Source of the DNA: Acidobacteriota bacterium
Lineage (GTDB): Bacteria; Acidobacteriota; UBA4820; DSQY01
Direction of reading: 5' to 3'
NCBI GenBank assembly: GCA_049967655.1
Contig: JBMFSH010000012.1
Span: forward strand, 5,945-69,944
DNA length: 64,000 nt
Shown piece by piece: positions 2,066 through 45,240 of the stretch. The notes beneath the pieces are model-generated. The model saw nothing but the letters and a program-made list of their open reading frames with translations. It did no database searches and was not told the DNA's origin. Made by a program: the position numbers and the translations under genes. Positions within the stretch are counted from its first letter, which is position 1. Every line of letters starts with the position of its first letter.

Positions 2066-3373
2066 ATGACCGACTCGGACCTGAGCCAGGGCATCGCGTT
2101 GTTGTCCGCCGCCGGATTCGACGCGTGGGAAGCCTTTCACCTTCGGCGCACCGCGCGGACCGCCCTTATCACTGGGGAGTCGGATCTGAAGCTGCTCGCC
2201 ATCGAGGAGGCCGGGCTCGGGATCCGGGTCTGCCGCGGAGGCAGGCGGGGCTTCGCCTCCACCACGGACTTGGGGCTGCGGGGGATCCAGGCTCTTCTGG
2301 ACCGCCTCGACGCCGTGGTCCGGTCCGCCGAGCCCGAAGCGCCGTGGACTTTGGCGGAGCCTCCAAGCGGCGCGGCGGGCGGCTCCCCGACCACCTCAGC
2401 GTCGCCCCCCCTCGATTGGCGAGAGGCCGAATCTATGCTTCAGGAGGCCGCCTCCGCCGCCCGCGGGCCCGGCCTGGCGGTCGGGGAGTGCCGCCTGCGC
2501 CAGGCCGAGGAGCGCATCAGCATCTGCAACAGCCGTGGCCTCACCGTAAACTTCGAGCGGCGCCGCTCCTCCCTCTCCGTAGCCTGCAGGACCGACGTAG
2601 GCGACCACTCAGGCCGTTTTTCCCAGTTCGGGGCCACACCCAGGGAGATGGATGCGGCCTCCGCGGGCCGCCGGGCCGCCATGCGGACCGCCGCTCGGAC
2701 GGCCCGCAAGGCTCGCCTTCCGGCCAAGGCCACCGTGGTACTCGGCCCCTGGGCGACGGCCTCCCTTTTGCGGCGCCTCACTCCCTGCCTTGCGGGCGAG
2801 GGCGAGCGCTCCTGGAGGTCAATCCTCGGAGAAGCGGTCGGCTCGGGTGCCATGACGCTCGTGGATGATCCCCGGTTGCCCGGCGGCGCCGGGAGTTCGC
2901 CCTTCGACGATGAGGGAGTGCCGGCGGAACCCCTTTGCCTGGCGGCGAAGGGCATCCTACGGGCCCTGGCCCACCATTGCGGCTCCGCCGCCAAGGCCGG
3001 AAGCGCGAGCACGGGACACGGCCTCCGCATGGGCTTTGCCCATCTACCCGAAGTCGGCTTTCACAACCTCCACCTGGCGGGAGAGCACGGCCTCACCCCC
3101 GAAGCCCTCCTCGATAAGGCCGGCCCCTGCCTTTACCTGGAAGAGCTGGCCGGCCCGCCTCCGTTCCACTCGGGGTACGGCCGTCTCCTCACGGGGTGGG
3201 GATGGGCGCTCCGCAACGGCGAGCCGACGGGGGCGGTGGACCCGGTCTGCCTGGCCGACACCCTGCCGGACCTCCTTCTCAAACTCGTCCGGGTGGCCGG
3301 CCAGCCGCTCACCTTTCCCGGCGGAACCGCCGGAACGACGGCCCTCTTCGAGGATGTTCGAATGGCCGGATGA
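2066..3373 (+). CDS. TldD/PmbA family metalloprotease (PmbA-like)
   Basis: family-typical N-terminal region (MTDSDLSQGIALLSAAGFDAWEAF...); start from ORF-track arithmetic. Confidence 0.6.
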   Translation: MTDSDLSQGIALLSAAGFDAWEAFHLRRTARTALITGESDLKLLAIEEAGLGIRVCRGGRRGFASTTDLGLRGIQALLDRLDAVVRSAEPEAPWTLAEPPSGAAGGSPTTSASPPLDWREAESMLQEAASAARGPGLAVGECRLRQAEERISICNSRGLTVNFERRRSSLSVACRTDVGDHSGRFSQFGATPREMDAASAGRRAAMRTAARTARKARLPAKATVVLGPWATASLLRRLTPCLAGEGERSWRSILGEAVGSGAMTLVDDPRLPGGAGSSPFDDEGVPAEPLCLAAKGILRALAHHCGSAAKAGSASTGHGLRMGFAHLPEVGFHNLHLAGEHGLTPEALLDKAGPCLYLEELAGPPPFHSGYGRLLTGWGWALRNGEPTGAVDPVCLADTLPDLLLKLVRVAGQPLTFPGGTAGTTALFEDVRMAG

Positions 3374-3387
3374 TGCAGTGGCCGGGG

Positions 3388-4128
3388 CTATTCGGAGGCC
3401 CGAGGCAGGTGGGGAGCCAGGCGACGCAGGAAGCTCCTGATAAGCCCCACCTCACGCCTGGAAAGTCCGAATCGGTGCAGCATGGAGCGCAGCTCCCGGC
3501 CCACCGGGGCGCCGGGGTGGCGGAGGAAGCGGATCCGCTCCGCCACATTGAGCAGCTGCTGCGCGGCCGCCTCCACCTGCTCGTGGTTCGCCGGCTCCGG
3601 CGCGGCGGCCGGCGCGGCCCCGCCTCCGGCGCGGAAGGCCAGGTAGGCCAGCAGGACCGCGGACTGCGCCACGTTCAGGTCCCGGTAGGCAGGGTCCGTG
3701 GGAATCACCACGACCCGCCCGCACGCCGACAGCTCTCGCAGGGTCAGCCCCGACGACTCGGAACCGAAGACGAGCGCCGCATCCACGCCGGGCCGGCCGA
3801 CCCGATCCGCCGCCGCCTCGGGCGTCAGGGTGGGGAGTTTGGCGTGGGCGTGCGGGGCGGTGGCCAACACCACCTGGCACCCCGCCACGGCCTCCTCGAG
3901 AGATCCGACGGTCCGGGCCGCGCCGAGAACGTCGACGGCCCCCCACGCCGTACGGCGGGACTCGGTCTCGAAGAGGGGCGGAGATCCCGGAAGGTCTTGT
4001 GAGCGGTGAAGGCGGGGATCCACCAGGATGAGATCCTGGAATCCGAAGTTCTTCATGGCACGCGCCACGGAGCCGACGTTGGCGGGGGTCCTGGGACGGA
4101 CCAGGACGAACCGAAGAGGAGCCATCAC
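3388..4128 (-). CDS. SpoU/TrmH-family RNA 2'-O-methyltransferase (TrmJ-like)
   Basis: SpoU methylase motifs (LVRPRTPANVGSVARAMKNFG ... VFGSESSGL). Confidence 0.75.
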   Translation of the reverse strand: MMAPLRFVLVRPRTPANVGSVARAMKNFGFQDLILVDPRLHRSQDLPGSPPLFETESRRTAWGAVDVLGAARTVGSLEEAVAGCQVVLATAPHAHAKLPTLTPEAAADRVGRPGVDAALVFGSESSGLTLRELSACGRVVVIPTDPAYRDLNVAQSAVLLAYLAFRAGGGAAPAAAPEPANHEQVEAAAQQLLNVAERIRFLRHPGAPVGRELRSMLHRFGLSRREVGLIRSFLRRLAPHLPRASE

Positions 4129-5153
4129 CGAACCTCAGCCGCGCCCGGCCGCCGCTGGAACCGGTTGACGGCCCGGTCGTGTTCGGCGAGTGTTCGCGAG
4201 AAGTAGTGCGTCCCGTCGTTCCGGCTTACGAAGTAGAGGTAGTCGGATGGGGTCGGGTGGAGCACCGCCTCGAGGGAGGCCTTGCCGGGGCTGCAGATGG
4301 GGCCAGGCGGGAGGCCTGCGTGAAGATAGGTGTTGTAGGGACTCGCGTATGCCAAGTCCTGTCGGGTGAGGTACCCCCGGTAGACGCCGCCCATGGTTTC
4401 GGCGTACACGATGGTGGGGTCGGTCTGAAGCGGCATGCCGATGCGCAATCGGTTCAAGAAGACGTCGGCCACCAGCGGGCGCTCCTGCGGCGCGGCCGTC
4501 TCCTTCTCCACCAGGGAAGCCAGGGTGACCACCTCGCGGATCGGCATGCCACCCGAATTCGGCAGTCCGACCTTCTCCCACCAGGACCGAAAGCTCGCCA
4601 CGAGCACCTTCAGGACGGCCTCCTCGCGCAGATCCGGATCCATCAGATAGGTCTCGGGGAAGAGATACCCCTCCAGCGTGGTGGCCGAGGGGTCCAGGTC
4701 CCGGATCAGGGCCGGATCGGAGGTGAGCTTCAGGAATGTCTTCTCGCGGCCCAGGCCGGCGGCCGCCAGCAGGTGGGCCACCTCGTCGCGGCGGAGCCCT
4801 TCGGGGATGGTCACCTTGATGAGGATGACCTCTCCCTCGTTCAAGACCTGCACCACCTGAAGGGGCGTCATGGGCTTTTCGAAGCGGTAGGTCCCGGCCT
4901 TCAAAGTCTTGGGATGGCCGAACAGGGAGAAGGCCAGTTTCAGCGAGAAGCGGCTGCGGACGACCCCTTCCGCCGCCATCCGCTCCAGGACCTGTCCGGC
5001 GCTCATGCCCCTGGGCACGTGCACGAGGACGACCCTCGGCCTGGAGGGGTAAGGTTCGTGCCAGTCCCAGGCCAGCCAGGCCGCGAATAGGGCACAGACC
5101 GCGACCGCGACGAGCACGGTTCCCAGAGCCACCCGTCTCGCCCAGACCGTCAT
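4125..5153 (-). CDS. mltG: endolytic murein transglycosylase MltG (YceG family)
   Basis: N-terminal TM then YceG domain (…GMPLQTDPTIVYA…). Confidence 0.8.
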   Translation of the reverse strand: MTVWARRVALGTVLVAVAVCALFAAWLAWDWHEPYPSRPRVVLVHVPRGMSAGQVLERMAAEGVVRSRFSLKLAFSLFGHPKTLKAGTYRFEKPMTPLQVVQVLNEGEVILIKVTIPEGLRRDEVAHLLAAAGLGREKTFLKLTSDPALIRDLDPSATTLEGYLFPETYLMDPDLREEAVLKVLVASFRSWWEKVGLPNSGGMPIREVVTLASLVEKETAAPQERPLVADVFLNRLRIGMPLQTDPTIVYAETMGGVYRGYLTRQDLAYASPYNTYLHAGLPPGPICSPGKASLEAVLHPTPSDYLYFVSRNDGTHYFSRTLAEHDRAVNRFQRRPGAAEVR

Positions 5154-6453: not shown

Positions 6454-7427
6454 GGCAGCTCGTCCGCCAGCGCCCTGGTCAGCTCCTCGGGGTTGCAGGT
6501 GGCCGTGCCCATCTTACCCACCACCACACCGGCCGCGGCGTTGGCCATGTGCGCCGCCTCCGACAGGGCAACGCCCGAGGCCAGGGCCAGGCTCAGCACG
6601 GCCACTACGGTGTCGCCCGCCCCGGTCACGTCGTAGACCTCGCGGACCCGGGCGGGGATGTGCTCCAAGGCTCCCGTCCGCCGAGCCAGGACCATGCCCT
6701 CCTCCCCCACCGTAAAGAGGATCGCCGCCCAGTCGGTGCGGGAAAAGAGCCCCGCGGCGGCGGCTCCCGCCTGCTCCAGCGAGAAGGCGTGGCCGCAGAG
6801 GCCCTCGGCCTCGGCACGGTTCGGCGTGAGAACCGTGGCCCCCGGATAGGGAAAGTGGGAGGGCTTGGGATCCACGACGTAGGGGATGCCGGCGGCCTTG
6901 GCCATCTCGCCGACGGCCGCCAGGCTGGTGTGGTCAAAGAGCCCCTTGGCGTAGTCCGAGACCACGAGTGCCCCACACCCGGGCAATGCGCTCTCTATGG
7001 AGGTCAGGACTCTCTGGCGCGCCCGCTCGTCCAGAGGCTCCTTCACCTCGCGATCGACGCGTACCACCTGCTGGTGGTGCGCGACGATACGGGTCTTCAC
7101 GGTGGTGAGGCGCCCGGCGATTTCGACCAGCGCGTCGGTGGAGAGTCCGGCGCCCGCCAGCACTTCGAGGAACTGCCTCCCGGTGGGATCGTCCCCGATC
7201 GCACCCACCAGGGTCACCGCCCCTCCGAGGGCCACGATGTTGTTGGCCACGTTCGCCGCCCCACCGGGCAGGGCCCGTTCGCTGGTCACCTCCACCACCG
7301 GGATGGGGGCCTCGGGCGAAATACGGTGGACGGATCCGTAGACGAAGCGGTCGAGGATCAGGTCCCCGGCCACCAAAATCTTTATCCCTCGCCAGTCTGG
7401 CAGCCCACTTCTCATGCCTCCCCCCAC
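6450..7427 (-). CDS. D-glycero-beta-D-manno-heptose 7-phosphate kinase (RfaE domain I / PfkB family, kinase-only)
   Basis: ribokinase-fold motifs (ILVAGDLILDRF…GAGDTVVAVL); start M1 or M5 uncertain. Confidence 0.7.
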   Translation of the reverse strand: MGGGMRSGLPDWRGIKILVAGDLILDRFVYGSVHRISPEAPIPVVEVTSERALPGGAANVANNIVALGGAVTLVGAIGDDPTGRQFLEVLAGAGLSTDALVEIAGRLTTVKTRIVAHHQQVVRVDREVKEPLDERARQRVLTSIESALPGCGALVVSDYAKGLFDHTSLAAVGEMAKAAGIPYVVDPKPSHFPYPGATVLTPNRAEAEGLCGHAFSLEQAGAAAAGLFSRTDWAAILFTVGEEGMVLARRTGALEHIPARVREVYDVTGAGDTVVAVLSLALASGVALSEAAHMANAAAGVVVGKMGTATCNPEELTRALADELP

Positions 7428-7434
7428 CCGTCGG

Positions 7435-7851
7435 TCATATACCGGCTTCCCACAAATACCACCAGTTCAGTAGAAACGCCACGAGCAGGCCAAGCCAGAA
7501 CCACTTCTCCTCCCTCGGCGAGAGTTCGATGATGAAATCCCGTTCGGCGAAGCGGGCCACCAGCCCGACGAGAGTCCAGAGAACGAGGGCGGCCAGGATG
7601 AGGAGCAGGAGCGGATTGCTGTGAAAGGAGGCGGCCAGCCTCCCGTGCAGCAGGTCCAGCACCATCCTCGTGGCCCCGCAGGTGGGGCAGGGGTGGCCGG
7701 TGATTAGATGGAAGCCGCAAGGCGGCAGGAACCTCGCCGGGAGGCGCTCCGCCACCAGGCCAGCCGCGCCCAGCACCAGCAACCCCAGCCCCACGCCGAC
7801 CCACGCGGGAGTGGGATTCTCTTTCCGGTGCGGAGCCAACCCAAGCTTCAC
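7435..7851 (-). CDS. DUF2752 family membrane protein
   Basis: HLITGHPCPTCGATR motif plus TM helices. Confidence 0.6.
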   Translation of the reverse strand: MKLGLAPHRKENPTPAWVGVGLGLLVLGAAGLVAERLPARFLPPCGFHLITGHPCPTCGATRMVLDLLHGRLAASFHSNPLLLLILAALVLWTLVGLVARFAERDFIIELSPREEKWFWLGLLVAFLLNWWYLWEAGI

Positions 7852-9188
7852 TTCGGCCCCGCCTTCGACGTCCCCTTCACCAAGGTAAAGGAGGCCACGA
7901 TCTTGCCCCAGGCTTGCTCGGGCAGGACGAAGGCCACGCTGCGCTTGGCGGGGTGGGCGTACCAGGTTCCTGAGGAATCCCGGCCCAGCTCCACGCGGTC
8001 CGAGAAGCCCTGTCCCCGGAAGGTGATCGTCACGGCGGGCGGAGAGAGCCCGAGTTTACCGGGTTCCGTAAGGGGCACCGCCCGCTCACCGCGAAGGGAG
8101 GAGAGGCCATCGGCCAGAATGCTGGCTTGGGCCCCCTTGGGTGGGAGCTTCGGTTGGGTGAACACCCAGCCCAGCTTCTCGTCCCGCTTCAATGCGAGGG
8201 AGTAGAGGCCCGAGACGCCGATCTCCTGGACATCGTAGAAGTCGTGCGATATGAGGTTCATGGAGCGCAGCTTCTCCGGATCCTGGTCCAGGGACTTCAG
8301 CGAGTTGAGGGAGACGGCCATGACCGACGGGCGGTTGGAGACCCAGGCGTAGACCAGCCGCTTCTCGGGCGCGCCGCCGGGGACGGCCTTCCCGAGCTTG
8401 GCCTCGATGGTCTGGCCCTTGGCCGTCACCAGAATGTCGGTGGAGGGCGGATCGAGGCCGTAGGTGGACAGGTCGGCCGGCTTGTCCGAAACGTATTGGT
8501 CCACGGGGCAGAGGGAGATGTCGTCGAGGAGATTCTCGATCTGGTTGGTGTCCCCGCGGTCGCTGAAGGGGGCGGTGACGCTCCACCCTCCTGCGGGGTC
8601 GCGAGAGAGGGCGAGCGTCTCGGCTCCACCGCGCAGGACCTTCAGAGACTGGATGTCCGCCGTTCCGACCGTGAGGAGGTCCTTGGAGCGGAAGCTGGAC
8701 ACGGGTTCGAGGAGTAGGCTTTCGAGGTCCGGCGCCACCAGGGCGGTCCGGGCGCCGATCCGCACGTAGAGCCCTTCGTCCAGGGGCGCCTTGGCCCCCA
8801 CGTCCAGGACCACCGGCTTCGTCGGCCCCTTCAACGTCCACACGGCCCTGGGCGGGGAGAGGCCCAGCTCCGCCTCCGATGCGGTGGGTTCCACCCAGCG
8901 CAGGACCGTCGCCCTGGAGAGGCGGTCCAGGAAGCCCTCCACTCCGTAGCGGTCGGCGGCGTCGTCAACGGGCTGGCTCACTCGCCAGCCGCCTCCCTTT
9001 TCTTTGACCAGGGAAATCGCCCCCTGCCCGCTGCGGCTCAACTGGCTGACCTGGTCGGGTTTGAAGTCCACGAGACGGTTGCGCCGCTCGGCGATCTGCT
9101 CCGTGCTGGGCTGCTTCCGCTCCCAGAGGGCGATGAAGGAGACCAAGAGCGCCACCATGGCCAGCAGAATCCACGTGGATCTCTTCAT
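7848..9188 (-). CDS. DUF4340-domain protein (accessory to GldG-type ABC system)
   Basis: signal/TM N-terminus; sits downstream of the GldG-like gene as in known operons. Confidence 0.6.
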   Translation of the reverse strand: MKRSTWILLAMVALLVSFIALWERKQPSTEQIAERRNRLVDFKPDQVSQLSRSGQGAISLVKEKGGGWRVSQPVDDAADRYGVEGFLDRLSRATVLRWVEPTASEAELGLSPPRAVWTLKGPTKPVVLDVGAKAPLDEGLYVRIGARTALVAPDLESLLLEPVSSFRSKDLLTVGTADIQSLKVLRGGAETLALSRDPAGGWSVTAPFSDRGDTNQIENLLDDISLCPVDQYVSDKPADLSTYGLDPPSTDILVTAKGQTIEAKLGKAVPGGAPEKRLVYAWVSNRPSVMAVSLNSLKSLDQDPEKLRSMNLISHDFYDVQEIGVSGLYSLALKRDEKLGWVFTQPKLPPKGAQASILADGLSSLRGERAVPLTEPGKLGLSPPAVTITFRGQGFSDRVELGRDSSGTWYAHPAKRSVAFVLPEQAWGKIVASFTLVKGTSKAGPK

Positions 9189-9194
9189 GGCTCC

Positions 9195-10643
9195 TCACCT
9201 CCGTCGGCGCAGGTAGGCGAACACCCCCGCCGCTACAACCAGTCCGGGAAGGATGACGACGAAGAGGATGAAGAGGAAGTTGGACTGCGAGGCGGTCAGC
9301 GTCAGGTGCGTCTCCACCTCGGTCTTGGGAGGAATGGCCAGCCGGCTGGTCTGGGAGAGCAGCCAGTGAATGGAGTTGAGACAGAAGAGGAGGTTTCCCG
9401 CCCCCGTCTGCAAGAGCCCGTCGCTCGCCACGTCCGAGTCGCCTACCACCACCAGGCGGCACTGGTCAGCCGTGTCCTTGGAGCTCACCGCGGCGGCCAT
9501 GGTCAGGGGCCCCTGCGCGTCCGTCGGCTTTTTTTCGACGCCCTTGTCGATGTTGGCGAGATCCCGCATGCCCCACGACTGCGGCGAGGACTGCAGGAGA
9601 GCCTCGCAGTGGTAGGCCTTGTTCTGGGGGGTGCCGAGGGTGAGGGACTGGGCCAGGCTGAGGAGCACGGGCAGCTTGTTCTGGACCAGGTCCTTCACAA
9701 CAGGCTCTTCCCCCACGGCCTGGGCGAAGAAGGTCTGCGCTCCGAGGTAGGGCACCGATGCGGCCGGATCCACCGCGATGTCGTGCCCGAGCGTGATGCC
9801 CCATTCCTGGAGGGTCGTCCCCAGGCCCGTGGAGCCGAAGGTCGGCGGCTTTCCGCTCTCGATGACGGGATCCAGAAGAAAGAGGGCCTTCCCTCCCTTT
9901 TGGAGGTAGTGGTCGATAACCTGGGCCTCCTGCGGAAGGAAGGGGCTCTTGGGCCCCGCGATGACCAGCATGCTGGCGTCCGAGGGCACTTCGGTCTTGC
10001 CCAGGCTAGCCCATTCCAGGACCTTGGCGCCCTCCTTGGCGAGGCGGGCCTTCAGAAGGCTGATGCCCTCTCCTTGAGCGCCGGCGTCTCGCTCGCCGTG
10101 GCCGGTGGTGAAGTAGATCACGGGGGTCTCCGGGTGCTCCAGGCTGAAGATGGCGTTGGTGAAGGCCGCCTCGGCCTTGAAGCTCTTGATGGCGGGCTGG
10201 CCGCCGAGGCCCGCGCTGGAGAAGTCGTAATCCACCATCTGGTCCTTCTCCACGTACTTGCTTTTGCCCCCGAGGGCGAAGACCACCACGTTGGCCATGG
10301 AGACCTTGTACTGCTGGGCAAGGGCCTCCATCCTGGCGCGCTGCCGGTCGGGATCGATGGTCTCCACCTGCACCAGGGGGCTGGCGGCGGCGTAGCCGTC
10401 CAACAGGTCCTTCACCCTCTCGTACAGGGGATCGTTGGGGGCGAGAAAGACCACGACCTTGAGCGGCTCCTTGAGCTCTCCGAGCACCTTTTTGGTCTCC
10501 TGAGAAATGGTGAAGGAGCGGCTGGCCGTGAGGTCCCACCGGTGGTAGTGGCGGAAGGCCAGGTAGTTCACAATCAGGAAGAGAGCGGTCAGGAGCACCA
10601 GGAAGACGCTCCAGTTGGTCTCTTGCAGGAGTCTTTTCTTCAT
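9195..10643 (-). CDS. GldG-like ABC-transporter auxiliary component (gliding-motility-associated family)
   Basis: N- and C-terminal TM anchors flanking a large periplasmic domain; operon context with an ABC-2 permease and ATPase. Confidence 0.65.
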   Translation of the reverse strand: MKKRLLQETNWSVFLVLLTALFLIVNYLAFRHYHRWDLTASRSFTISQETKKVLGELKEPLKVVVFLAPNDPLYERVKDLLDGYAAASPLVQVETIDPDRQRARMEALAQQYKVSMANVVVFALGGKSKYVEKDQMVDYDFSSAGLGGQPAIKSFKAEAAFTNAIFSLEHPETPVIYFTTGHGERDAGAQGEGISLLKARLAKEGAKVLEWASLGKTEVPSDASMLVIAGPKSPFLPQEAQVIDHYLQKGGKALFLLDPVIESGKPPTFGSTGLGTTLQEWGITLGHDIAVDPAASVPYLGAQTFFAQAVGEEPVVKDLVQNKLPVLLSLAQSLTLGTPQNKAYHCEALLQSSPQSWGMRDLANIDKGVEKKPTDAQGPLTMAAAVSSKDTADQCRLVVVGDSDVASDGLLQTGAGNLLFCLNSIHWLLSQTSRLAIPPKTEVETHLTLTASQSNFLFILFVVILPGLVVAAGVFAYLRRRR

Positions 10644-19320: not shown

Positions 19321-20118
19321 CTACTTCTTAATGGGAGCCGATAGGCCGAGCTTGGCCATGACCTCCTGGATGTCCTTCCAGACTTGCCCTTTGGCGCCCG
19401 GGTTTCTCAGCAGGTAGGAGGGATGGTAGGTGGGCATCATGGCGGTGCCCCGAAAATCCGTCCAGGTGCCCCGGAATTTGGTGATCTGAACGGGGGCCTT
19501 CAGAAGCGCCTGGATGGCCACCCGCCCGAGCCCCACGATGACCTCCGGCCGGATGACGTCGATCTGGGCCTCCAGAAAGGGGAGGCAGGCCTGCACCTCG
19601 TCCGGCTCCGGGTCCCGGTTGCCCGGCGGCCTGCACTTCACCACGTTGGCGATGTAGACCTGGGACCGGGAGAGGCCCATACCCTTGGTGATAATGTCCG
19701 TCAGGAGCTTCCCCGCGCGGCCCACGAAGGGCTCGCCCTGGGCGTCTTCATCGGCCCCCGGCCCCTCGCCGATGAACATGACCCTAGCCCTCGGGTCTCC
19801 GACGCCGAACACGATGTGGCTTCTCTTCTCGCAGAGCTTGCACCGCCGGCAGTCGCCGATCCAGGCTCGGATGGCATCGAGAGCCCGGCCCGGCTCCTCG
19901 GGCCAGGGGCCCTTGGGGGCCGCGGAACCCTCCGAGTGGGCGTGAGGTAAAGGGGGGACAGTGGCCGGTCGCCGGAGCTCCGCCTTGGGCCGGCCGGGGT
20001 TCCCAGCCTCCATCGCGCCTGCCGCCCGGACCTGCCTGGCCAGGCCGTAGTCCAATCCCTGCTCCTTCAGGAAGCCGGCCCTCAGCCGCACCTGCTCGGC
20101 AAAGGCGTCATCGGCCAT
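19321..20118 (-). CDS. uracil-DNA glycosylase family 4 (Fe-S type) with ~85-aa N-terminal extension
   Basis: C-x2-C-x-C-x2-C… (CRRCKLC) and GEGPG motif. Confidence 0.8.
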   Translation of the reverse strand: MADDAFAEQVRLRAGFLKEQGLDYGLARQVRAAGAMEAGNPGRPKAELRRPATVPPLPHAHSEGSAAPKGPWPEEPGRALDAIRAWIGDCRRCKLCEKRSHIVFGVGDPRARVMFIGEGPGADEDAQGEPFVGRAGKLLTDIITKGMGLSRSQVYIANVVKCRPPGNRDPEPDEVQACLPFLEAQIDVIRPEVIVGLGRVAIQALLKAPVQITKFRGTWTDFRGTAMMPTYHPSYLLRNPGAKGQVWKDIQEVMAKLGLSAPIKK

Positions 20119-21349
20119 GGAGCGCCTCTTGAATGGCGTCCCATAGGGCCCTCGCGCAGTCCGTCTTGGAGGCCTCGGGGACTCGCTCCTCGGAACCGTC
20201 CGGCCAGAAGAGGCTGAGGGCGTTGCGGTCCGACTCGAATCCCACCCCCTCCTTGGAAACGTCGTTCGCGGCCACCAGGTCCAGCCCCTTGCGCTTCAGC
20301 TTAGCCAGGGCGTTCTCCTTGAGCTCCTCGGTTTCGGCCGCGAAGCCGCACACGAACTGCCCCTTCCCTTTCAGGGGCGCCAACGCCTCGAGGATATCTT
20401 CCGTGGGCTCAAGGTCGAGTTGCCAGACTCCCTTGCCCTTCTTCCTCTTGGAGGCCAGGGGTTGCGCGGCCCGGTAGTCGGCCACGGCCGCAGCCATGAC
20501 GAGGACCTGGCACTCCCGGAAGCGGGCCCGCACCGCCTCGGCCATCTGGGCCGCCGTGACGACGGGGACGAAATCGGCGCCCGACGGCGGCTCCAGACCC
20601 GTGGGCCCCGAAACCAGCGTGACTTGGGCTCCGCGCTGGATGGCCTCGCGGGCCACGGCGTAGCCCATCTTGCCCGAGGAGCGGTTGGAGAGAAACCGCA
20701 CCGGATCTACGGGTTCCCGCGTTGGACCCGCCGTCACCAGCACCTTCACACCCTGCAGGCCTCCCTCGCGCTCCAGAATGGCCACGGCCTCGCTCGCGAT
20801 GGCCGCCGGTTCGGGCAGCCGGCCCTCATCCACGTCGCCGCAGGCCAGGCTCCCCTTGGCGGGCTGAAGGACTGCGTGCCCCCGCCCCTCCAGGATCCTC
20901 AGGTTCTCCTGCACGGCGGGGTGGCGCCACATGGAGCCGTTCATGGCCGGCACCAGGAGCACCGGAGCCCCGCGGTTGGCCAGGTAGTGGGTGGTCAGGA
21001 AATCGTCGGCGATGCCTCGGGCCAGCTTCCCGAGGATATTGGCCGTGGCGGGAGCCACCAGAAACAGCTCCTCCCACCGGGCCAGCTCGATGTGGGCGAT
21101 GGAGGGCTCGCCCGATCCCTCAAAGAGGTCCGTGATGACCGGATGGCCCGATAGGGCCTGGAAGGTGATGGGCGCCACCATCCGGGCCGCGTGGGCCGTC
21201 ATCACGACCTTCACCTCGCACCTCCGGTCCTGCAGCCGCCGCACCAAATCGCAGGTCTTGTAGATGCTGATGCCGGCGCATACGCCCAGGGTAACCCGGT
21301 GCGTGCCGGCCGCAGATCCCGATGGGGCAATGGGTTTCGTTTTGGCCAT
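20108..21349 (-). CDS. coaBC: bifunctional phosphopantothenoylcysteine decarboxylase/synthetase
   Basis: flavoprotein N-domain plus DFP C-domain. Confidence 0.9.
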   Translation of the reverse strand: MAKTKPIAPSGSAAGTHRVTLGVCAGISIYKTCDLVRRLQDRRCEVKVVMTAHAARMVAPITFQALSGHPVITDLFEGSGEPSIAHIELARWEELFLVAPATANILGKLARGIADDFLTTHYLANRGAPVLLVPAMNGSMWRHPAVQENLRILEGRGHAVLQPAKGSLACGDVDEGRLPEPAAIASEAVAILEREGGLQGVKVLVTAGPTREPVDPVRFLSNRSSGKMGYAVAREAIQRGAQVTLVSGPTGLEPPSGADFVPVVTAAQMAEAVRARFRECQVLVMAAAVADYRAAQPLASKRKKGKGVWQLDLEPTEDILEALAPLKGKGQFVCGFAAETEELKENALAKLKRKGLDLVAANDVSKEGVGFESDRNALSLFWPDGSEERVPEASKTDCARALWDAIQEALHGR

Positions 21350-33001: not shown

Positions 33002-33158
33002 GGTCGCCTCTCCCTCTATGAGGGGTGCCGCCGTCTCGCGGCGGTGAATCCCCCTTTTTTTATTTTAACCCGCGAGGAGCGCCCCCTCTTCCATTCAGCC
33101 TGAACCGGTTCCCTCTGTGCCCCTGCGTCTCTGTGGTCAGCCTCTCCTTCGCGCCTCC

Positions 33159-33293
33159 AAATTCCGCGATGGAGCGCGGGTGCCTCCGGCTGCTGTTCGG
33201 GTTCACCGGGGAAAGGCGTTGTCTCCTGGGCGGGGAGGGCCATTCCCTCCCCGCCCCACGGGCAAAGCCCGATGGGGCCCCACCTCCACCTGG
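33159..33293 (+). repeat. structured intergenic repeat, copy 3
   Basis: aligns to copy 1 over about 125 nt; lies in a divergent promoter region. Confidence 0.7.
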
Positions 33294-33321
33294 ACCTCGC
33301 TCCCGCGCTATACTCGCCGCG

Positions 33322-34349
33322 TGAAGGCCCCGCTCTCCCCCCTCCGCCTCTACCTCGCCGGGATCAAGATCACGGTCTCCAACCCCGAGCTCCCCCTCTG
33401 GCAGTGGGGCGCAGCCCTCGTGCTGGGCGTCGGCTCCCTCGCCCCCCTGGCCGCCGGGGCCTTCTACCTCTTCCATCCCCTGTGGGCCTCCGGCCTCCGA
33501 CACGAGAGCCCCGATGCCCTTCTGCTTCGAGTGCTGGAGGTGCTCATCCCCCGCCTGCCGTCCCTCTTCCTCCTCGCCGCCCTCTTCCTCCTCTGGGTGG
33601 CCCTCCTTTGCCTGCCCTACCTGTACGTCCAGGCGGGCCTCGCCGGCCTTCTCGCCTCGGCCTTCTTGCGCCTGCCTCCGGAGGGGCCGGCCTCCTCCTC
33701 CCGCCTCGGTTACTCGAAGGCCTTCCGCTGCTTCCGCTATGCCGAGTTCCGCGAAGAGGCCCGCCGGCGAGTCTGGGCCGTGAGCCTGCTCGCCTCCTAC
33801 TACTCGCTCGCCGGCCTGGCCCTGGCGGCGGCCGTTCCCCTCGCGGGGTTCGCCCTCCACGCCCTCCTCCGCCCGAACCCGTGGGCGACCTATGCCGGGC
33901 TCCTCGGCGCCGGGGCTTTGGCCGTGGCCGAGGTCCCCCTCTTCGTGCTCCTCAAGGTCCACGCCCGCTACGCCCTGGCCTGCCTCGTGCTCTTCGACCT
34001 CCCGCCCGGCCGGAGCGTGGCGAGGGCCACCCGGCTCTTCCGGAGCCGGCCCCTCCCGGTGCTGGCCCTTTTCGGCATCGGCCTCCTCCTCGCCCTCATC
34101 CTGGCGGGGCTCTTCGCCGCGCTGGACGCCCCGATCGAGCTCCTCTCCTGGATTCCGCGGGCGAGCCTGTGGCTCGTGGGGCTCCGCGTGCTCCTGGCCC
34201 TGCTCCAGAACCTGGGAGGACAGGGGCTGAAGGTGGCGGGGCTCGGGGCAGCCATGGCGCTCTGCCGCGAGGAGGCCGGGCGCCCGGCTCCGGGGCCGCC
34301 GCGGCCGCGGGGCCGCCTTCCGGTTGACAGCTCCGCGGCCGCGGGGTAA
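33322..34349 (+). CDS. hypothetical polytopic membrane protein
   Basis: multiple TM helices; putative GTG start. Confidence 0.45.
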
Positions 34350-39724: not shown

Positions 39725-42634
39725 ATGACACCCATCGAGTTCATCCACAAGTGGCGGGACGCGGCGTTGTCGGAGCGCTCGGCGTGCCAGCAGCACTTTC
39801 TGGACCTGTGCGAGCTGGTGGGCCACCCGAAGCCGGCGGAGGTGGACAAGACGGGCGAGTCCTTCACCTTCGAGCGCGGCGCGGCCAAGACCGACGGCGG
39901 CGACGGCTGGGCGGACGTCTGGAAGCGGGGCTTCTTCGGCTGGGAGTACAAGGGCCGCCACGCCAACCTCGCCAAGGCCTACGGCCAGCTCCTCCAGTAC
40001 CGGGAGGCGCTGGAGAACCCGCCCCTGCTCGTGGTGTGCGACATGGACCGCCTGGAGATCCACACCAACTTCACGGGGACGCGCACCGAGGTCCACGCGC
40101 TGCGCCTCGTGGAGCTGGACATGCCCCGCAGCCGGGAGATTCTGCACGCCCTCTTCTTCGACCCGGAGAAGCTCCGCCCCGGCGCCACCAGCGCCTCCAT
40201 CACCACCGAGGCCGCCGCCCACATCGGCGAGATCGCCCAGCGCCTGCGCGCCCGAGGCGAGCAGCCGGCCCAGGTGGCGCGCTTCCTCGACCGCCTCGTC
40301 TTCTGCCTCTTCGCCGAGGACATCGGCCTGCTGCCCGAGGCGCTCTTCTCGCGCCTCCTCCACAAGACCCGGGACGATCCGCCCCGCTTCCAGAAGCTCG
40401 TCTCGGACCTCTTCGAGGCCATGGCCAAGGGCGGCGATTTCGGCATGGACACGATCCGCTGGTTCAACGGCTCGCTCTTCGCCCACGGGCCCGTCCTGCC
40501 GCTGGAGGAGGGGGAGCTGGCCATCCTCGACCGGGCCGCCGCCCTGGACTGGAGCGCCGTGGACGCCTCCATCTTCGGCACCCTCTTCGAGCGGGGCCTC
40601 GACCCGGACAAGCGCTCCCAGCTCGGCGCCCACTACACGAGCCGCGCCGACATCGAGGCCCTGGTGGAGCCCGTGGTCATGGCGCCCCTTCGCCGCCGCT
40701 GGCAGGAGGTGCGCGCGCGGGCCGAGGAGGCCCTGGCGGCCCTCGACCGCCGGCCGGGCCGCAAGGCCCTCACGCCGCAGGCCGCCGCGCGCATCCGCGA
40801 CAGGGCCTCGGGCATCGCGGGCGCCTTCCTCTTCGAGCTGCACACCCTCACCGTCCTGGACCCGGCCTGCGGCTCGGGCAACTTCCTCTACGTGACGCTC
40901 CAGAAGCTCAAGGACCTGGAGAAGGAGGTCGGCGTCTGGGCCGTGGGGCGAGGGCTCGGTCAGTTCCTGCCCATGGTCCACCCGCACCAGCTCTACGGCA
41001 TCGAGGTGAACCCCTACGCCCACGAGCTGGCCTAGATGACCGTCTGGATCGGCTACCTCCAGTGGATCAGCGCCAACGGCTTCGGCCTGCCCCACGACCC
41101 CGTCCTCGAATCGCTGGAGCGCCACTTCCTCTGCCGCGACGCCATCCTCGACCTGGGCGACCCGGATCATCCGAAGGAGCCCGAGTGGCCCGAGGCCGAC
41201 TGCATCGTCGGCAACCCGCCCTTCCTGGGGGGGAAGATCCTGAGGCGCGAGCTGGGCGATTCGTACGTGGACCGGCTCTTCGCCCTGTGGGACGGCCGCG
41301 TGCCGCGCGAGGCCGACCTGTGCGCCTACTGGTTCGAGAAGGCGAGGGACCAGGTGGAGGCGGGGCGCTGCCGGCGCGCCGACCTGCTCGCCACCCAGGG
41401 CATCCGCGGCGGGGCCAACCGCAAGGTCCTGGAGCGGATCAAAGAGACGGGCGAGATCTTCTTCGCCGAGAGCGACCGCCCGTGGATCCTCGACGGCGCC
41501 AACGTCCACGTCAGCATGGTGGGCTTCGACCGGGGGGAGGAGACGGCGCGCCTCCTGGACGGAAAGGCCGTGCCGGTGATCCACGCCAACCTCACCGCCG
41601 CGGCGGACACCACCCAGGCGGCGCGGCTTCCCGAGAACCGGGGCCTCGCCTACATGGGCGACACCAAGAGGGGGCCCTTCGATATTCCCGAGGCCCGCGC
41701 CCTCGACTGGCTTCAGAGGCCCAACCCGCACGGGCGACCCAACTCGGACGTGGTCGTGCCCTGGGTCAACGGCTTGGACGTGACGGGCCGGCCGCGCTCC
41801 CTGTGGATCGTGGACTTCGGCGCGGCGATTGCCGAGGAGGCTGCGGCCCGGTACGAGGCTCCCTTCGAGTACGTGCGCGAGCGGGTGAAACCGGAACGGG
41901 ATAAGTCGCGAAGTACGGTTGGGATTTGGTGGCAACATGAACGAGCCAGGCTGGACATGCGGGAGGCGTTGGCGAACGTGCCGCGCTTCCTGTCCACGGT
42001 GGCCGTCTCCAAGCATCGGCTCTTCACCTGGATGCGATCGCCCACATTGCCGGACCACCAGGTCTTCGCCTTTGCCGGCTCGGACGACTATCTCTTCGCC
42101 CTCCTCCACTCGCGCTTCCACGAGGCGTGGGCGCTGAAGTTGGGCACGCGGTTGGAGACAAGGCCCCGCTACACCCCCACGACCTGCTTCGAGACCTTCC
42201 CCTTCCCCTGGCCGCCGGGACACGAGCCGGCGGAGGACCCGCGCGTGCGGGCCATCGCCGACGCCGCCCGGGAGCTGAACCGCCTCCGGGAGGGCTGGCT
42301 CAACCCGCCCGAGTGGACGCGGGAGGAGATCCTCACCTTCCCCGGCTCCGCGGAGGGCCCCTGGGGCCGCTTCGTCACGGAGCCCGACGCGCGCGGCATC
42401 GGCACCGTCCGCTACCCCCGTCTCGTCCCCAGGGACGAGGCCAGCGCCGTGGCCCTCAAGGCCCGCACCCTCACCGGCCTCTACAACCAGCGCCCCACTT
42501 GGCTCGCCAACGCGCACCAAACCCTCGACGCCGCCGTCGCCGCCGCCTACGCCTGGCCCCCCGACCTCCCCGACGAGCAGATCCTCCAACGCCTCCTCGC
42601 CCTCAACCGCGAGAGGGCGGGGAAGAGTGTTTAG
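39725..42634 (+). pseudogene. MmeI-family Type IIL restriction-modification enzyme, interrupted by in-frame TAG at 41033-41035
   Basis: N-terminal nuclease motif D-x9-EYK (DVWKRGFFGWEYKG), MTase motif I VLDPACGSGNFL (ORF1), motif IV IVGNPPFLGG (ORF2); ORF1 39620..41035 and ORF2 41036..42634 are in the same frame; alternative start 39698. Confidence 0.7.
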
Positions 42635-42708
42635 TTATCCGTTAGCAGCGAGGCACTAGCCGCCGGGTCGAAAAGGTTGGGAGCAATTGCTGCTTAGAGG
42701 AGGGTCCT

Positions 42709-43404
42709 ATGGCACTGAGGGTTAAGAGAAGAACAGTATCCGATTTCGTTAGGCGAAAGGTCATTCACCTCGCGGGCAACCGGTGCTCGTTTTGCCCGGA
42801 GGACGACGTTAGCATCCTGCAACCGCACCACCTCACCGCTGTTTCCGAGGGCGGTTCCGACGACTGGGAGAACTAGATCGCAGTGTGTCCAACCTGCCAC
42901 GAAAAGATCCACAGGGGAACGATATCTACTGCTGAGGCCCTTGCCAGAAAGGCCCTGCAGCCGGTGCCGTCAACTCGCCGCGAGCAAAGCAAGGGCACGG
43001 CGCCTATCGTGGAGATCCAAGGCGACTTGCATCAAAGCACGGTGGCTGTGGGTGCCACCGTGAACATCCGGACCAGTGGTCGAGGGAAGCCGAAGCTACT
43101 GCCGGCACCGGACTCCCTGGGGGCAGCGCCCTGTAAGCTTCGATATTGCCGCTATCTAGTCGACAGATACCATGAATTCAAGCGATCAGAAGTGGGAAAG
43201 GACCAGATAAACTACGCGATTCTCCACGGTTCCATCAAGAGGGAATTCAAGGCCGCCCTTCCGAACATTCCGGCGCACCGCTTCGAAGATGTAGCGGAGT
43301 ATCTGCAAGGCAGAATCCTAAAGAGCAAGGTTGGCCGCAATCTCAACGCTAAAGGGCAGAAAGTGTTTGAGGACTTCGAGGAATTCCGTCAAAGGCACTG
43401 CTGA
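42709..43404 (+). pseudogene. HNH endonuclease with C-terminal domain of unknown function, in-frame TAG at 42874-42876
   Basis: CSFCPEDD…HHLTAVSEGGSDDWEN*IAVCPTCHEKIH is a textbook HNH motif broken at the conserved Leu position; GGAGGG RBS; lower GC. Confidence 0.6.
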
Positions 43405-43890
43405 CCGCGGCGACGGCCTGGGGTGGCCCCGTATGGTGCATCTCGCCCGCCCCGCAGGGGCGGCATGCGTCCCGACGCCGGTGGGCCTTATGTGAGGAAG
43501 GTGAGGTGACCACACCGCGAGCGTACTCAAGGTACGCTGAGGATGTGGGCGCCGACGCCTGACGACACAGAAGGTCCGCCGCCGTCGGCGCACTCTTCGA
43601 GGGGGTGGGGACGGTCCTTCGAAGGCACGAGAGCCGGCCGCCCGAAGGGCGTGCCAGGACGCGCGCGGCGGCGGGGAGGAAGGCGCGGGGGCAGGAGATG
43701 CCGAGACCCCGAGTCAGGAAACCGCTGGAGGAGGCCACGGGGTGACGCTCCATGCTGGAGCGCCTTTCGCCCCGGTGGCGCCGCGTCTTGGCCAGGGCGC
43801 CGGAGGCGCCCGGCGGCTCGCCGCGGTGAGGCGGGAGCCCCTTTGACGCATCGCGCCGGGGAGGGCTCCTGCGAGGCGCCGGCGAGGGGC

Positions 43891-45240
43891 CTACCGCTCG
43901 AGCTTGCCCTTGAGGACGCCGGCGGCGACGAGGAGCGGGTCCCAGACGGGGGCGAAGGGCGGCGCGTAGGCGAGGTCGAGCATGGAGAGCTCCTCCACCT
44001 TCATCCCGCAGGTCAGCGCGGCGGCGAGGGTGTCGACGCGCCCCTTGGTCCCCTCCGGGCCGCAGACCTGCCCGCCCAGCAGGCGCCCGCGCCGGTCGGC
44101 GGTGAGGTGAACGAGGACGCCGCCACCGCCGGGGTAGTAACCCGCGCGGCTGCCCGCTTCGATCCAGGCCTCAACGGGGTCGAAGCCCGCCTCCCGGGCC
44201 TGGGCCGGGTCCAAACCGGTGACGCCCACCTCCAGGCCGAAGGCCCGCGTGATAGCCGTGCCCACCACGCCGGGAAAGCGCTCGCGCCCGCCGGCGATGT
44301 TGGTGCCCGCCACCCGGCCCATCTTGTTGGCCGTCGTGCCCAGGGGGATGTAGACGGGCCGGCCCGTCACCAGGTGGCGGACCTCGCAGCAGTCCCCCGC
44401 CGCCCAGACGCCGTGCACCCCCGTGGCGCAGGTCTCGTCCACCTGGATGGCGCCGTTTCGGGCCAGCGGGACCGGCGAGCCGCGCAGGAAATCGGTGGCG
44501 GGCCTCACCCCCGTGGCGATGAGGAAGAGGTCGGCGGCGAGCTCGCCCCGGTCGGTGCGCAGGGCCAGGAGGCGGCCGTTCGCGCCCAGCGCCTCCAGCA
44601 CCTGTGTCTCCAAGAGGAGGCGGACGCCGCGCTCCTCCAGCTCCCGCAGGAGGCGGTCGCGCAGCGGCTCCACCAGGTTCTTGAGGAGGCGCGTGGAGCG
44701 GTTGATGAGGGTCACCGCCATGCCTCGGGCGGCGAAGTTCTCGGCCATCTCCAGGGCGATGTAGCCCGTGCCCCAGATGAGCGCCGAGCGGGGGCGGACC
44801 GCCTCGATGAAGGTGGTGAGGCGGCGGCCGTCGGGCAGGTCGTGGAGCGTGAAGAGGTTGTCGCCCGAAAGGCCGCGCAGATCGGGCAGCACCGGTGTGC
44901 TCCCCGTGCTGATGAGGAGGGCGTCGTAGTCCTCCTCGGCGGTCCGGCCGGAGGCCAGGTCCTCCACGCGGACCCGCTTCTTGCCCTCCATGAGCTCCAC
45001 GACTCGCTGGCGCAGGCGCACCTCGATGCCGCGCCGCTGGATCTCCTCGGGGTCCAGGGCGCTCAGGTCGTCGAAGCTCGGCGTGATGCCCCCCACCACG
45101 TAGGGCAGGCCGCAGGCGCCGTAGGAGAGGTCGGGCCCCGCCTCGAGGACGGTGGCCTCCCACTCGGGCCGCATCCGCCGGAGCTTGCTTGCCGCGCTCA
45201 TGCCAGCCGCCATTCCCCCGATCACGAGCAATTTGGGCAT
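43891..45240 (-). CDS. FAD-dependent pyridine nucleotide-disulfide oxidoreductase (CoA-disulfide reductase/NADH oxidase family)
   Basis: GGMAAG FAD motif, NAD motif, C-terminal dimerisation domain. Confidence 0.75.
   Translation of the reverse strand: MPKLLVIGGMAAGMSAASKLRRMRPEWEATVLEAGPDLSYGACGLPYVVGGITPSFDDLSALDPEEIQRRGIEVRLRQRVVELMEGKKRVRVEDLASGRTAEEDYDALLISTGSTPVLPDLRGLSGDNLFTLHDLPDGRRLTTFIEAVRPRSALIWGTGYIALEMAENFAARGMAVTLINRSTRLLKNLVEPLRDRLLRELEERGVRLLLETQVLEALGANGRLLALRTDRGELAADLFLIATGVRPATDFLRGSPVPLARNGAIQVDETCATGVHGVWAAGDCCEVRHLVTGRPVYIPLGTTANKMGRVAGTNIAGGRERFPGVVGTAITRAFGLEVGVTGLDPAQAREAGFDPVEAWIEAGSRAGYYPGGGGVLVHLTADRRGRLLGGQVCGPEGTKGRVDTLAAALTCGMKVEELSMLDLAYAPPFAPVWDPLLVAAGVLKGKLER

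Follow-up and report, generated by a model that had tools for sequence, protein, structure and literature searches.

Restriction-modification enzymes of the MmeI family characteristically recognise an asymmetric site, cut about 20/18 nt away from it and place m6A on one strand; they have no companion methyltransferase gene beside them, and the host is protected by this single-strand modification. Morgan et al. 2009 described three native genes of the family that are disrupted in sequenced isolates: in NmeAIII codon 32 is TAG, in DraRI codon 841 is TAA, and the lesion of ApyPI is a frameshift (PMC2731913). Resequencing confirmed the lesions, the native alleles were inactive, and correcting the lesion revived activity, for which a single base change was enough in NmeAIII and DraRI (PMC2731913). 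The authors proposed that natural populations contain active enzymes together with inactive forms that are readily repaired (PMC2731913).

Here we describe a locus from an Acidobacteriota metagenome-assembled genome (MAG) in which an MmeI-family gene and the gene that follows it each hold one in-frame amber codon. The locus lies in a 64-kb stretch of DNA, the whole of which was analysed and is called the window below. We consider it very probable that the two genes form a defence cassette in which each was knocked out recently by one derived single-base TAG, in the course of ordinary gene decay. The ancestral cassette would have consisted of an MmeI-family Type IIL enzyme, 74 bp, and then a co-oriented nuclease combining a zinc-knuckle HNH domain with a helical domain.

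Two neighbouring genes with one amber codon each

The upstream gene (39725..42634, + strand) encodes an MmeI-family Type IIL restriction-modification enzyme of 969 codons, its start set at the ATG at 39725 (MTPIEF...), and with one amber codon it is now a probable pseudogene. The D-X9-E-X-K form of the PD-ExK nuclease motif that marks the family is present as DVWKRGFFGWEYK (residues 64-76; 39914..39952, + strand), corresponding to D70, E80 and K82 of MmeI (PMC2731913). Methyltransferase motif I, LDPACGSGNF, which binds AdoMet (40856..40885, + strand), lies upstream of the amber; the amber itself stands at 41033-41035 (+ strand), between motifs I and IV, in place of a conserved Gln (CAG to TAG); and the catalytic motif IV, NPPF (41213..41224, + strand), lies downstream and so is absent from the shortened product. 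By Pfam the N-terminal half matches MmeI_N (2.9e-13), MmeI_hel and MmeI_Mtase and the C-terminal half MmeI_Mtase, MmeI_TRD and MmeI_C, while the PADLOC model REase_MTase_IIG PDLC03627 (Type IIG) is matched by both halves, at 6e-136 and 5e-131. Nearly all of the 120 closest homologues listed are 950-1075 aa long, Gln occupies the amber site in each of the 40 closest listed, in the context ELAQ(M/T)TVWIGYLQ, and in a syntenic intact allele (protein P0002 of locus L006, 984 aa) the codon aligned to the TAG is CAG.

The PD-ExK motif is retained in the 436-aa product and methyltransferase catalysis is lost; as the stop falls between motifs I and IV, the change from CAG to TAG would have removed both NPPF and the entire target-recognition domain. 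Intact members hold motifs I and IV, the target-recognition domain and the C-terminal domain on one polypeptide of about 920-1000 aa, and here these domains are all encoded in a frame that the TAG cuts. The window gene is thus a member of the family by descent, not an intact member. No companion methyltransferase adjoins it, its neighbours being a 240-aa protein without a Pfam match and, on the other side, the HNH gene followed by an oxidoreductase gene.

The downstream gene (42709..43404, + strand, 231 codons) encodes an HNH nuclease and, with one in-frame TAG, is likewise now a probable pseudogene. It is separated from the MmeI gene by a 74-bp spacer (42635..42708, + strand) with a Shine-Dalgarno-like GGAGG 7 nt 5' of the HNH ATG, which is kept in L001-L003. 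The open reading frame translates as CSFCPEDDVSILQPHHLTAVSEGGSDDWEN, then the TAG at 42874-42876, then IAVCPTCHEKIH, and ends with a TGA at 43402-43404. A sequence-only reading of this stretch had recognised a canonical HNH motif in 42709-43404, and the protein with Leu put at the TAG does match Pfam HNH (PF01844, E=9.3e-11, residues 26-69). The HNH (beta-beta-alpha-metal) domain (42784..42915, + strand) is laid out as C26xxC29, H40-H41, N55, L56 (now the stop) and C60xxC63-H64, and C26, C29, H40, H41, N55, C60, C63 and H64 are all encoded in the ORF. Translation ending at the stop gives a product of 55 aa; the loss of Leu56 (TTG to TAG) in the middle of the metal motif would have taken with it the second CxxC pair (C60xxC63) and the distal metal-binding His64. 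A beta-beta-alpha-metal motif with catalytic His, structural Asn, distal metal-binding His and two CxxC zinc pairs is therefore incomplete in the window product, in which the TAG at codon 56 precedes C60-H64, and complete in the nearest relative, P0001. Further along the frame an uncharacterised, conserved alpha-helical C-terminal domain is encoded (43114..43401, + strand), supported by the family alignment, an AF2 pLDDT of 96-99 and a dN/dS of 0.16, and its pattern is NY..YL..RY.EFK ... REFK ... RFD.L..YLQ.RI..T.LGR.

The same reading had placed the TAG at 42874-42876 (+ strand) on a conserved Leu and attributed it to a single TTG to TAG change, and had named a homologue alignment with no conserved residue at this position and protein ends nearby as grounds for abandoning the idea. 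In a 46-sequence alignment Leu follows the HNH Asn in 36 of 45 family members and Met in 6, and the position is conserved. The intact HNH alleles of the sister strains (L001-L003) have TTG (Leu) aligned to the TAG of the window (DNA alignment, columns 1098-1100), so that one T-to-A change accounts for it. The HNH gene is also, as had been claimed, the second TAG-interrupted gene in a row, given the TAG at 41033-41035 in the MmeI gene and the CAG in L006, and the frame is preserved downstream in both genes, with no additional stop or frameshift in either. A search of 5.8 billion clustered proteins gave P0001 as the sole close relative, which is intact, 231 aa long and 81% identical. Its gene occurs on five short contigs from metagenomes or MAGs, in the order MmeI 3' end, HNH, oxidoreductase. 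A public protein of 436 aa from an Acidobacteriota MAG (P0274, NCBI MGC8723508.1, 'type IIL restriction-modification enzyme MmeI') is identical to the N-terminal MmeI fragment of the window, and a public 114-aa gene call (P0123) has zero differences from the C-terminal HNH residues, which means that both genes are already split in public annotation. The S11 protein of the window is likewise identical to entries from NCBI MAGs that are labelled Acidobacteriota.

The sequence-only reading had also suggested comparing dN/dS and the downstream frame with homologues. Against L001 the HNH gene has an overall dN/dS of 0.21; the part 5' of the stop gives 0.16, the part 3' of it 0.21 and the C-terminal domain 0.16. 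The value 3' of the stop indicates purifying selection that fits either recency or read-through. With two more distant relatives as outgroups, the amino-acid changes on the window and intact HNH lineages number 12 against 8 and 5 against 7, and there is no excess on the window lineage. In the MmeI gene, comparison with L006 over the 435 codons 5' of the stop shows 18 synonymous and 2 non-synonymous changes (dS 0.057), and the tail has 4 window-specific against 5 L002-specific amino-acid changes. The low dN/dS and the lack of a lineage excess indicate that the lesions are recent when measured against the divergence of the strains. Continued read-through translation would fit these data too, and for this reason we keep a small probability for that explanation, which is weighed below.

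A strain-variable island and the HNH family

The target-recognition segment of the MmeI gene (41530..42170, + strand) is swapped between strains, as judged by blastn and protein identity against L006. Blastn similarity is lost over 41529-42170, and protein identity is 42-62% in the recognition segment against 92-100% in the flanks. L001, L002 and L003 are mutually divergent in the segment and P0275 is a further variant; at least three or four unrelated variants lie between near-identical flanks, the counterpart in L006 being at 7656-8312. These variants point to specificity switching by recombination, probably within one population. Comparison with L006 also delimits an exchangeable low-G+C cassette (42619..43569) made up of the last five MmeI codons, the spacer and the HNH gene. 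The cassette is 950 bp long with 56% G+C, and the HNH gene itself has 56.5% G+C against 67% for the window. In L006 a DUF3800 gene (8760-9841, 56% G+C) occupies the slot; the left swap junction lies five codons 5' of the MmeI stop, and the MmeI C-termini differ, GKSV against EGLKP before the stop codon.

Beside the variable island the first conserved core gene is a pyridine-nucleotide disulfide oxidoreductase gene (43891..45240, - strand). Sister strains are 93-96% identical over 18 kb on the ribosomal-protein side, and similarity ends past the oxidoreductase gene, near 43850. Loci L040-L048, compared with window 43843-43880, are without the MmeI/HNH island and have at this place a 566-aa protein without a Pfam match, or nothing; one of them, L043, holds a 178-bp MmeI remnant (19976-20152) that matches window 41725-41901. 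Between the cassette and the oxidoreductase gene lie about 320 bp of G+C-rich non-coding DNA (window 43570-43890), whose conservation is roughly 95% among strains that have one or the other cassette and partial in L043, which has none; this segment has neither an Rfam match nor a predicted terminator. The Rfam scan of 38-46 kb gave no RNA family, the promoter and terminator scan of the same region gave terminator-like sites only on the opposite strand and at chance level, and no flanking mobile-element repeats were found at the locus. Overall, the comparisons make the locus look typical of a hypervariable defence island that exchanges a specificity module and a downstream cargo gene.

Elsewhere in the window, the ORF at 33069-34349 (+ strand) falls where strand skew is extreme (AT skew -0.43, GC skew -0.22). 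Its product is Leu/Ala-rich, probably a membrane protein and without a Pfam match, and the ORF lies directly 5' of flavoprotein and UbiA genes.

A HMMER search of 1.84 billion representatives places the HNH protein in a family of proteins of about 230 aa that share the layout of HNH and helical C-terminal domain, with 143 found at E<=1e-10. The helical C-terminal domain (about 100 aa) has no Pfam match, no PHROG match and no convincing structural neighbour. Public annotation calls these proteins only 'HNH endonuclease signature motif containing protein', and the family has no characterised member. We sampled the neighbourhoods of 27 family members in GTDB species-representative genomes, and in 8 of these 27 unrelated genomes the homologue lies directly downstream of a single-chain restriction-modification enzyme. 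A co-oriented MmeI-like gene stands upstream in L014 and L027, and also in L008, at a distance of about 3 kb and seemingly split by an insertion; the upstream partner, again co-oriented, is an N6_Mtase+Type_ISP_C enzyme in L009, L018 and L024 (with a 97-aa ORF between in L024) and an N6_N4_Mtase+Mrr_cat fusion in L007 and L029, and in L012 a type I HsdR gene adjoins the homologue. The gap between enzyme and homologue is -4 to 150 bp in most of L007, L009, L014, L018, L024, L027, L029 and L012. Other neighbours of homologues are DUF4238, a SocA/Panacea antitoxin, an SF1 helicase and, on a plasmid, an ATPase and S8 peptidase pair.

The sister strains have the same MmeI-HNH gene order, and together with the 8 of 27 neighbourhoods this makes the MmeI and HNH genes look linked. 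The recurrent position downstream of single-chain restriction-modification enzymes suggests, from gene neighbourhood, that the HNH family is a partner or accessory of these enzymes; our literature search found no description of an MmeI-HNH pairing. A more specific proposal, which we put forward tentatively and think on balance doubtful, is that the family is an unrecognised accessory nuclease of single-polypeptide restriction-modification enzymes, its activity dependent on or checked by the methylation of its partner, with the double knock-out as the signature of this coupling. If this were true, once one partner was lost the other would have to go or would be free to go, and the proposal would cover MmeI-like Type IIL, N6_Mtase+Type_ISP_C and N6_N4_Mtase+Mrr_cat enzymes alike.

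Two further observations concern disruption within and beside the family. P0134 and P0122 are the nearest relatives after P0001; in P0134 (165 aa) similarity stops past the linker, as if the gene were frameshifted, and P0122 (194 aa) starts after the first CxxC pair, and decay of the HNH gene may be common. In L008, an alphaproteobacterial MAG, the MmeI-like gene occupies 2578-5016 and 7074-7388 and appears to be split by about 2 kb with an opposite-strand 497-aa ORF, which may be another disrupted MmeI gene beside the HNH family.

Origin of the two stop codons

Among the coding-type ORFs of the window (non-overlapping, with GC1>GC2<GC3 composition, n=45), 19 end in TAG (about 40%), 20 in TGA and 6 in TAA. 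The genes ending in TAG include rpsM, rplQ and MmeI itself, whose terminal TAG is conserved in the intact alleles. A six-frame scan for single stops with coding-type composition on both sides, its candidates tested by Pfam, found an internal TAG only in the MmeI and HNH genes, one in each. The other same-frame TAG junctions tested are borders of complete unrelated genes (S13/S11, L17/MgsA, ECF sigma/SmpB, flavin reductase/flavodoxin-like and UPF0047/unknown), and with TGA and TAA junctions checked likewise no further interrupted genes were found in the 64-kb window. That the interrupted genes are a pair of neighbours exceeds chance, yet it is expected from the decay of a functionally linked cassette.

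The choice of stop codon itself calls for little explanation. All single-base stop-creating changes were enumerated in the MmeI gene, which is GC3-rich, and in the HNH gene, and TAG results from 72% and 45% of them, respectively. The chance that two independent nonsense events are both amber is about one in three, and with these shares the two ambers are not unusual, which is where we part from the sequence-only reading. Both ambers fall within CTAGAT (41032-41037 and 42873-42878), of which the + strand of the window has only these two copies, and CTAG is about nine-fold depleted in the window (22 copies, where base composition predicts about 194). The ancestral contexts are C-CAG-AT (MmeI) and C-TTG-AT (HNH), in which the flanking bases predate the stops, and the mutation types differ, a C-to-T transition in MmeI and a T-to-A transversion in HNH. 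Since the flanks are ancestral and the mutations are of two different types, we rejected a common mutational or editing mechanism and take the shared CTAGAT to be a coincidence.

An altogether different explanation would be that TAG is decoded as an amino acid, through a suppressor tRNA, pyrrolysine, a recoded genome or a phage-like donor, and that both genes are intact; the sequence-only reading had raised this in the form of a donor, for example a phage, that reads TAG as sense. Both interruptions are indeed TAG and both preserve the frame, purifying selection is visible 3' of the stop, and the HNH cassette has a G+C content below that of the genome, which indicates a foreign origin. A reassigned code would be expected to leave TAG rare as a terminator and to place many in-frame TAGs in conserved genes; instead, about 40% of the coding-type ORFs stop at TAG, ribosomal protein genes and MmeI among them, and each interrupted gene has one TAG. 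The two sites also match different conserved residues, Gln in MmeI and Leu in HNH, and orthologous alleles that are 81-99% identical have ordinary CAG and TTG codons there. The 64-kb window is devoid of tRNA genes, and neither it nor 10 syntenic loci yielded a tRNA-CUA or pyl genes; the window is chromosomal, with the S10-spc-alpha ribosomal protein operon, mutS, aspS and smpB; and searches of IMG/VR contigs and of 50,697 phage genomes gave no full-length relatives of the HNH protein. TAG is read as an ordinary stop here, and the two ambers do not point to an altered genetic code. The idea of recoding or a phage donor is largely refuted by this evidence, and we give it next to no credence.

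The remaining alternatives concern whether the stops are real and whether they are complete. If the TAGs were sequencing, assembly or consensus-calling errors, the real genes would be intact; the sequence was assembled from a metagenome, the island varies between strains, and related assemblies break up here into contigs about 2 kb long, so that mixing of strains is conceivable. A search of JGI metagenome contigs did not recover the TAG alleles: the HNH TAG pattern had no match and the MmeI pattern had one distant homologue, with CAG, a result that is uninformative on polymorphism. Consensus substitution errors are rare in short-read assemblies, and it is improbable that two stop-creating substitutions would fall in neighbouring genes and none in the other 43 or so coding-type ORFs. 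Mixing of strains would yield a TAG only if some strain truly carries it, and genuine disruptions of a like kind are documented for the MmeI family (PMC2731913). Error is thus a very unlikely source of the two stops. Slightly less remote, and still unlikely, is that the ambers are leaky or functional, with low read-through or split polypeptides keeping a throttled activity under on/off or dosage control. Candidate starts for split polypeptides are the ATG right after the TAG for the C-terminal part of MmeI and the GTG at 42883 for that of HNH. TAG followed by A is reported to be a relatively suppressible context, and both ambers share the hexamer CTAGAT, which occurs nowhere else on the + strand; a conserved Met codon lies directly 3' of the MmeI stop (TAGATG); the downstream sequence has not decayed; and Morgan et al. 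proposed populations in which active enzymes coexist with inactive ones that are easily repaired (PMC2731913). The flanking bases are ancestral, however, and were not made together with the stops, and recency explains the absence of decay equally well. Active folding is unlikely for an MmeI protein split between motifs I and IV or for an HNH protein cut inside its metal finger, and expression of the NmeAIII and DraRI alleles with their native nonsense codons gave no activity (PMC2731913).

Recent loss of both genes from a defence cassette remains the best reading, and the coordinated inactivation of defence or toxic genes that the sequence-only reading had offered as one possibility is in substance the same. 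On this reading the two genes became pseudogenes recently, or are at most alleles that are inactive and could still be repaired. We infer that the two losses were functionally linked: once one gene was lost, selection on its partner may have been relaxed, or the nuclease of the partner may have become a liability. The locus may serve as a calibration case in which adjacent in-frame ambers mimic recoding and simple checks show recent loss of function in a mobile defence cassette. Three checks serve here: the ancestral codons in sister strains, the use of TAG as a stop in neighbouring genes, and the nonsense spectrum in a high-GC3 genome.

Relation to known systems

The solved structures nearest to the HNH domain are those of EcoKMcrA (6ghc), IscB, CBASS Cap5, ScoMcrA and TagI. 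The HNH domain alone aligns, over 80 residues to 6ghc and at residues 21-69 to the PADLOC model mREase_IV (2.8e-6). Unlike these proteins, the window protein has no methyl-cytosine-binding, SRA, SBD, RuvC or SAVED domain and has instead the helical C-terminal domain. A Type IV McrA-like enzyme was considered for it and rejected, as the C-terminal domain matches no reader domain for modified DNA (the EcoKMcrA N-terminal domain, SRA or SBD). What the family adds is a modest new point, an HNH protein with its own C-terminal domain that recurs beside single-chain enzymes and whose partner role is testable.

With stop-codon-recoded phages and bacteria, in which TAG stands for Gln, Ser or pyrrolysine, the locus shares only an in-frame TAG at a conserved Gln, and that in one gene. 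It differs from them in that TAG is a frequent terminator, each gene has a single TAG, different residues are needed at the two sites, the setting is chromosomal and no suppressor tRNA was seen in the window or the syntenic loci.

The closest likeness is to the disrupted genes of the MmeI family itself. Like NmeAIII and DraRI, the window gene encodes a PD-ExK nuclease, a gamma-class N6A methyltransferase and a target-recognition domain in a single chain and has one premature stop, which in NmeAIII is also TAG. As in the disrupted genes of the family, there is no other decay, one base would repair the frame, and active and inactive alleles coexist. Unlike in NmeAIII, DraRI and ApyPI, the stop falls between methyltransferase motifs I and IV, and a co-oriented downstream HNH gene is also knocked out; the evidence here comes from metagenome sequences, whereas those three genes were resequenced from isolates. 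The locus offers a natural example, from an uncultured Acidobacteriota population, of the polymorphism between active and inactive but repairable MmeI-family alleles that Morgan et al. envisaged, here accompanied by exchange of the recognition module and of a cargo gene (HNH or DUF3800). By analogy with those genes, we regard the MmeI half of the cassette as a further case of the phenomenon already documented in 2009, and the HNH half as extending it to a neighbouring gene.
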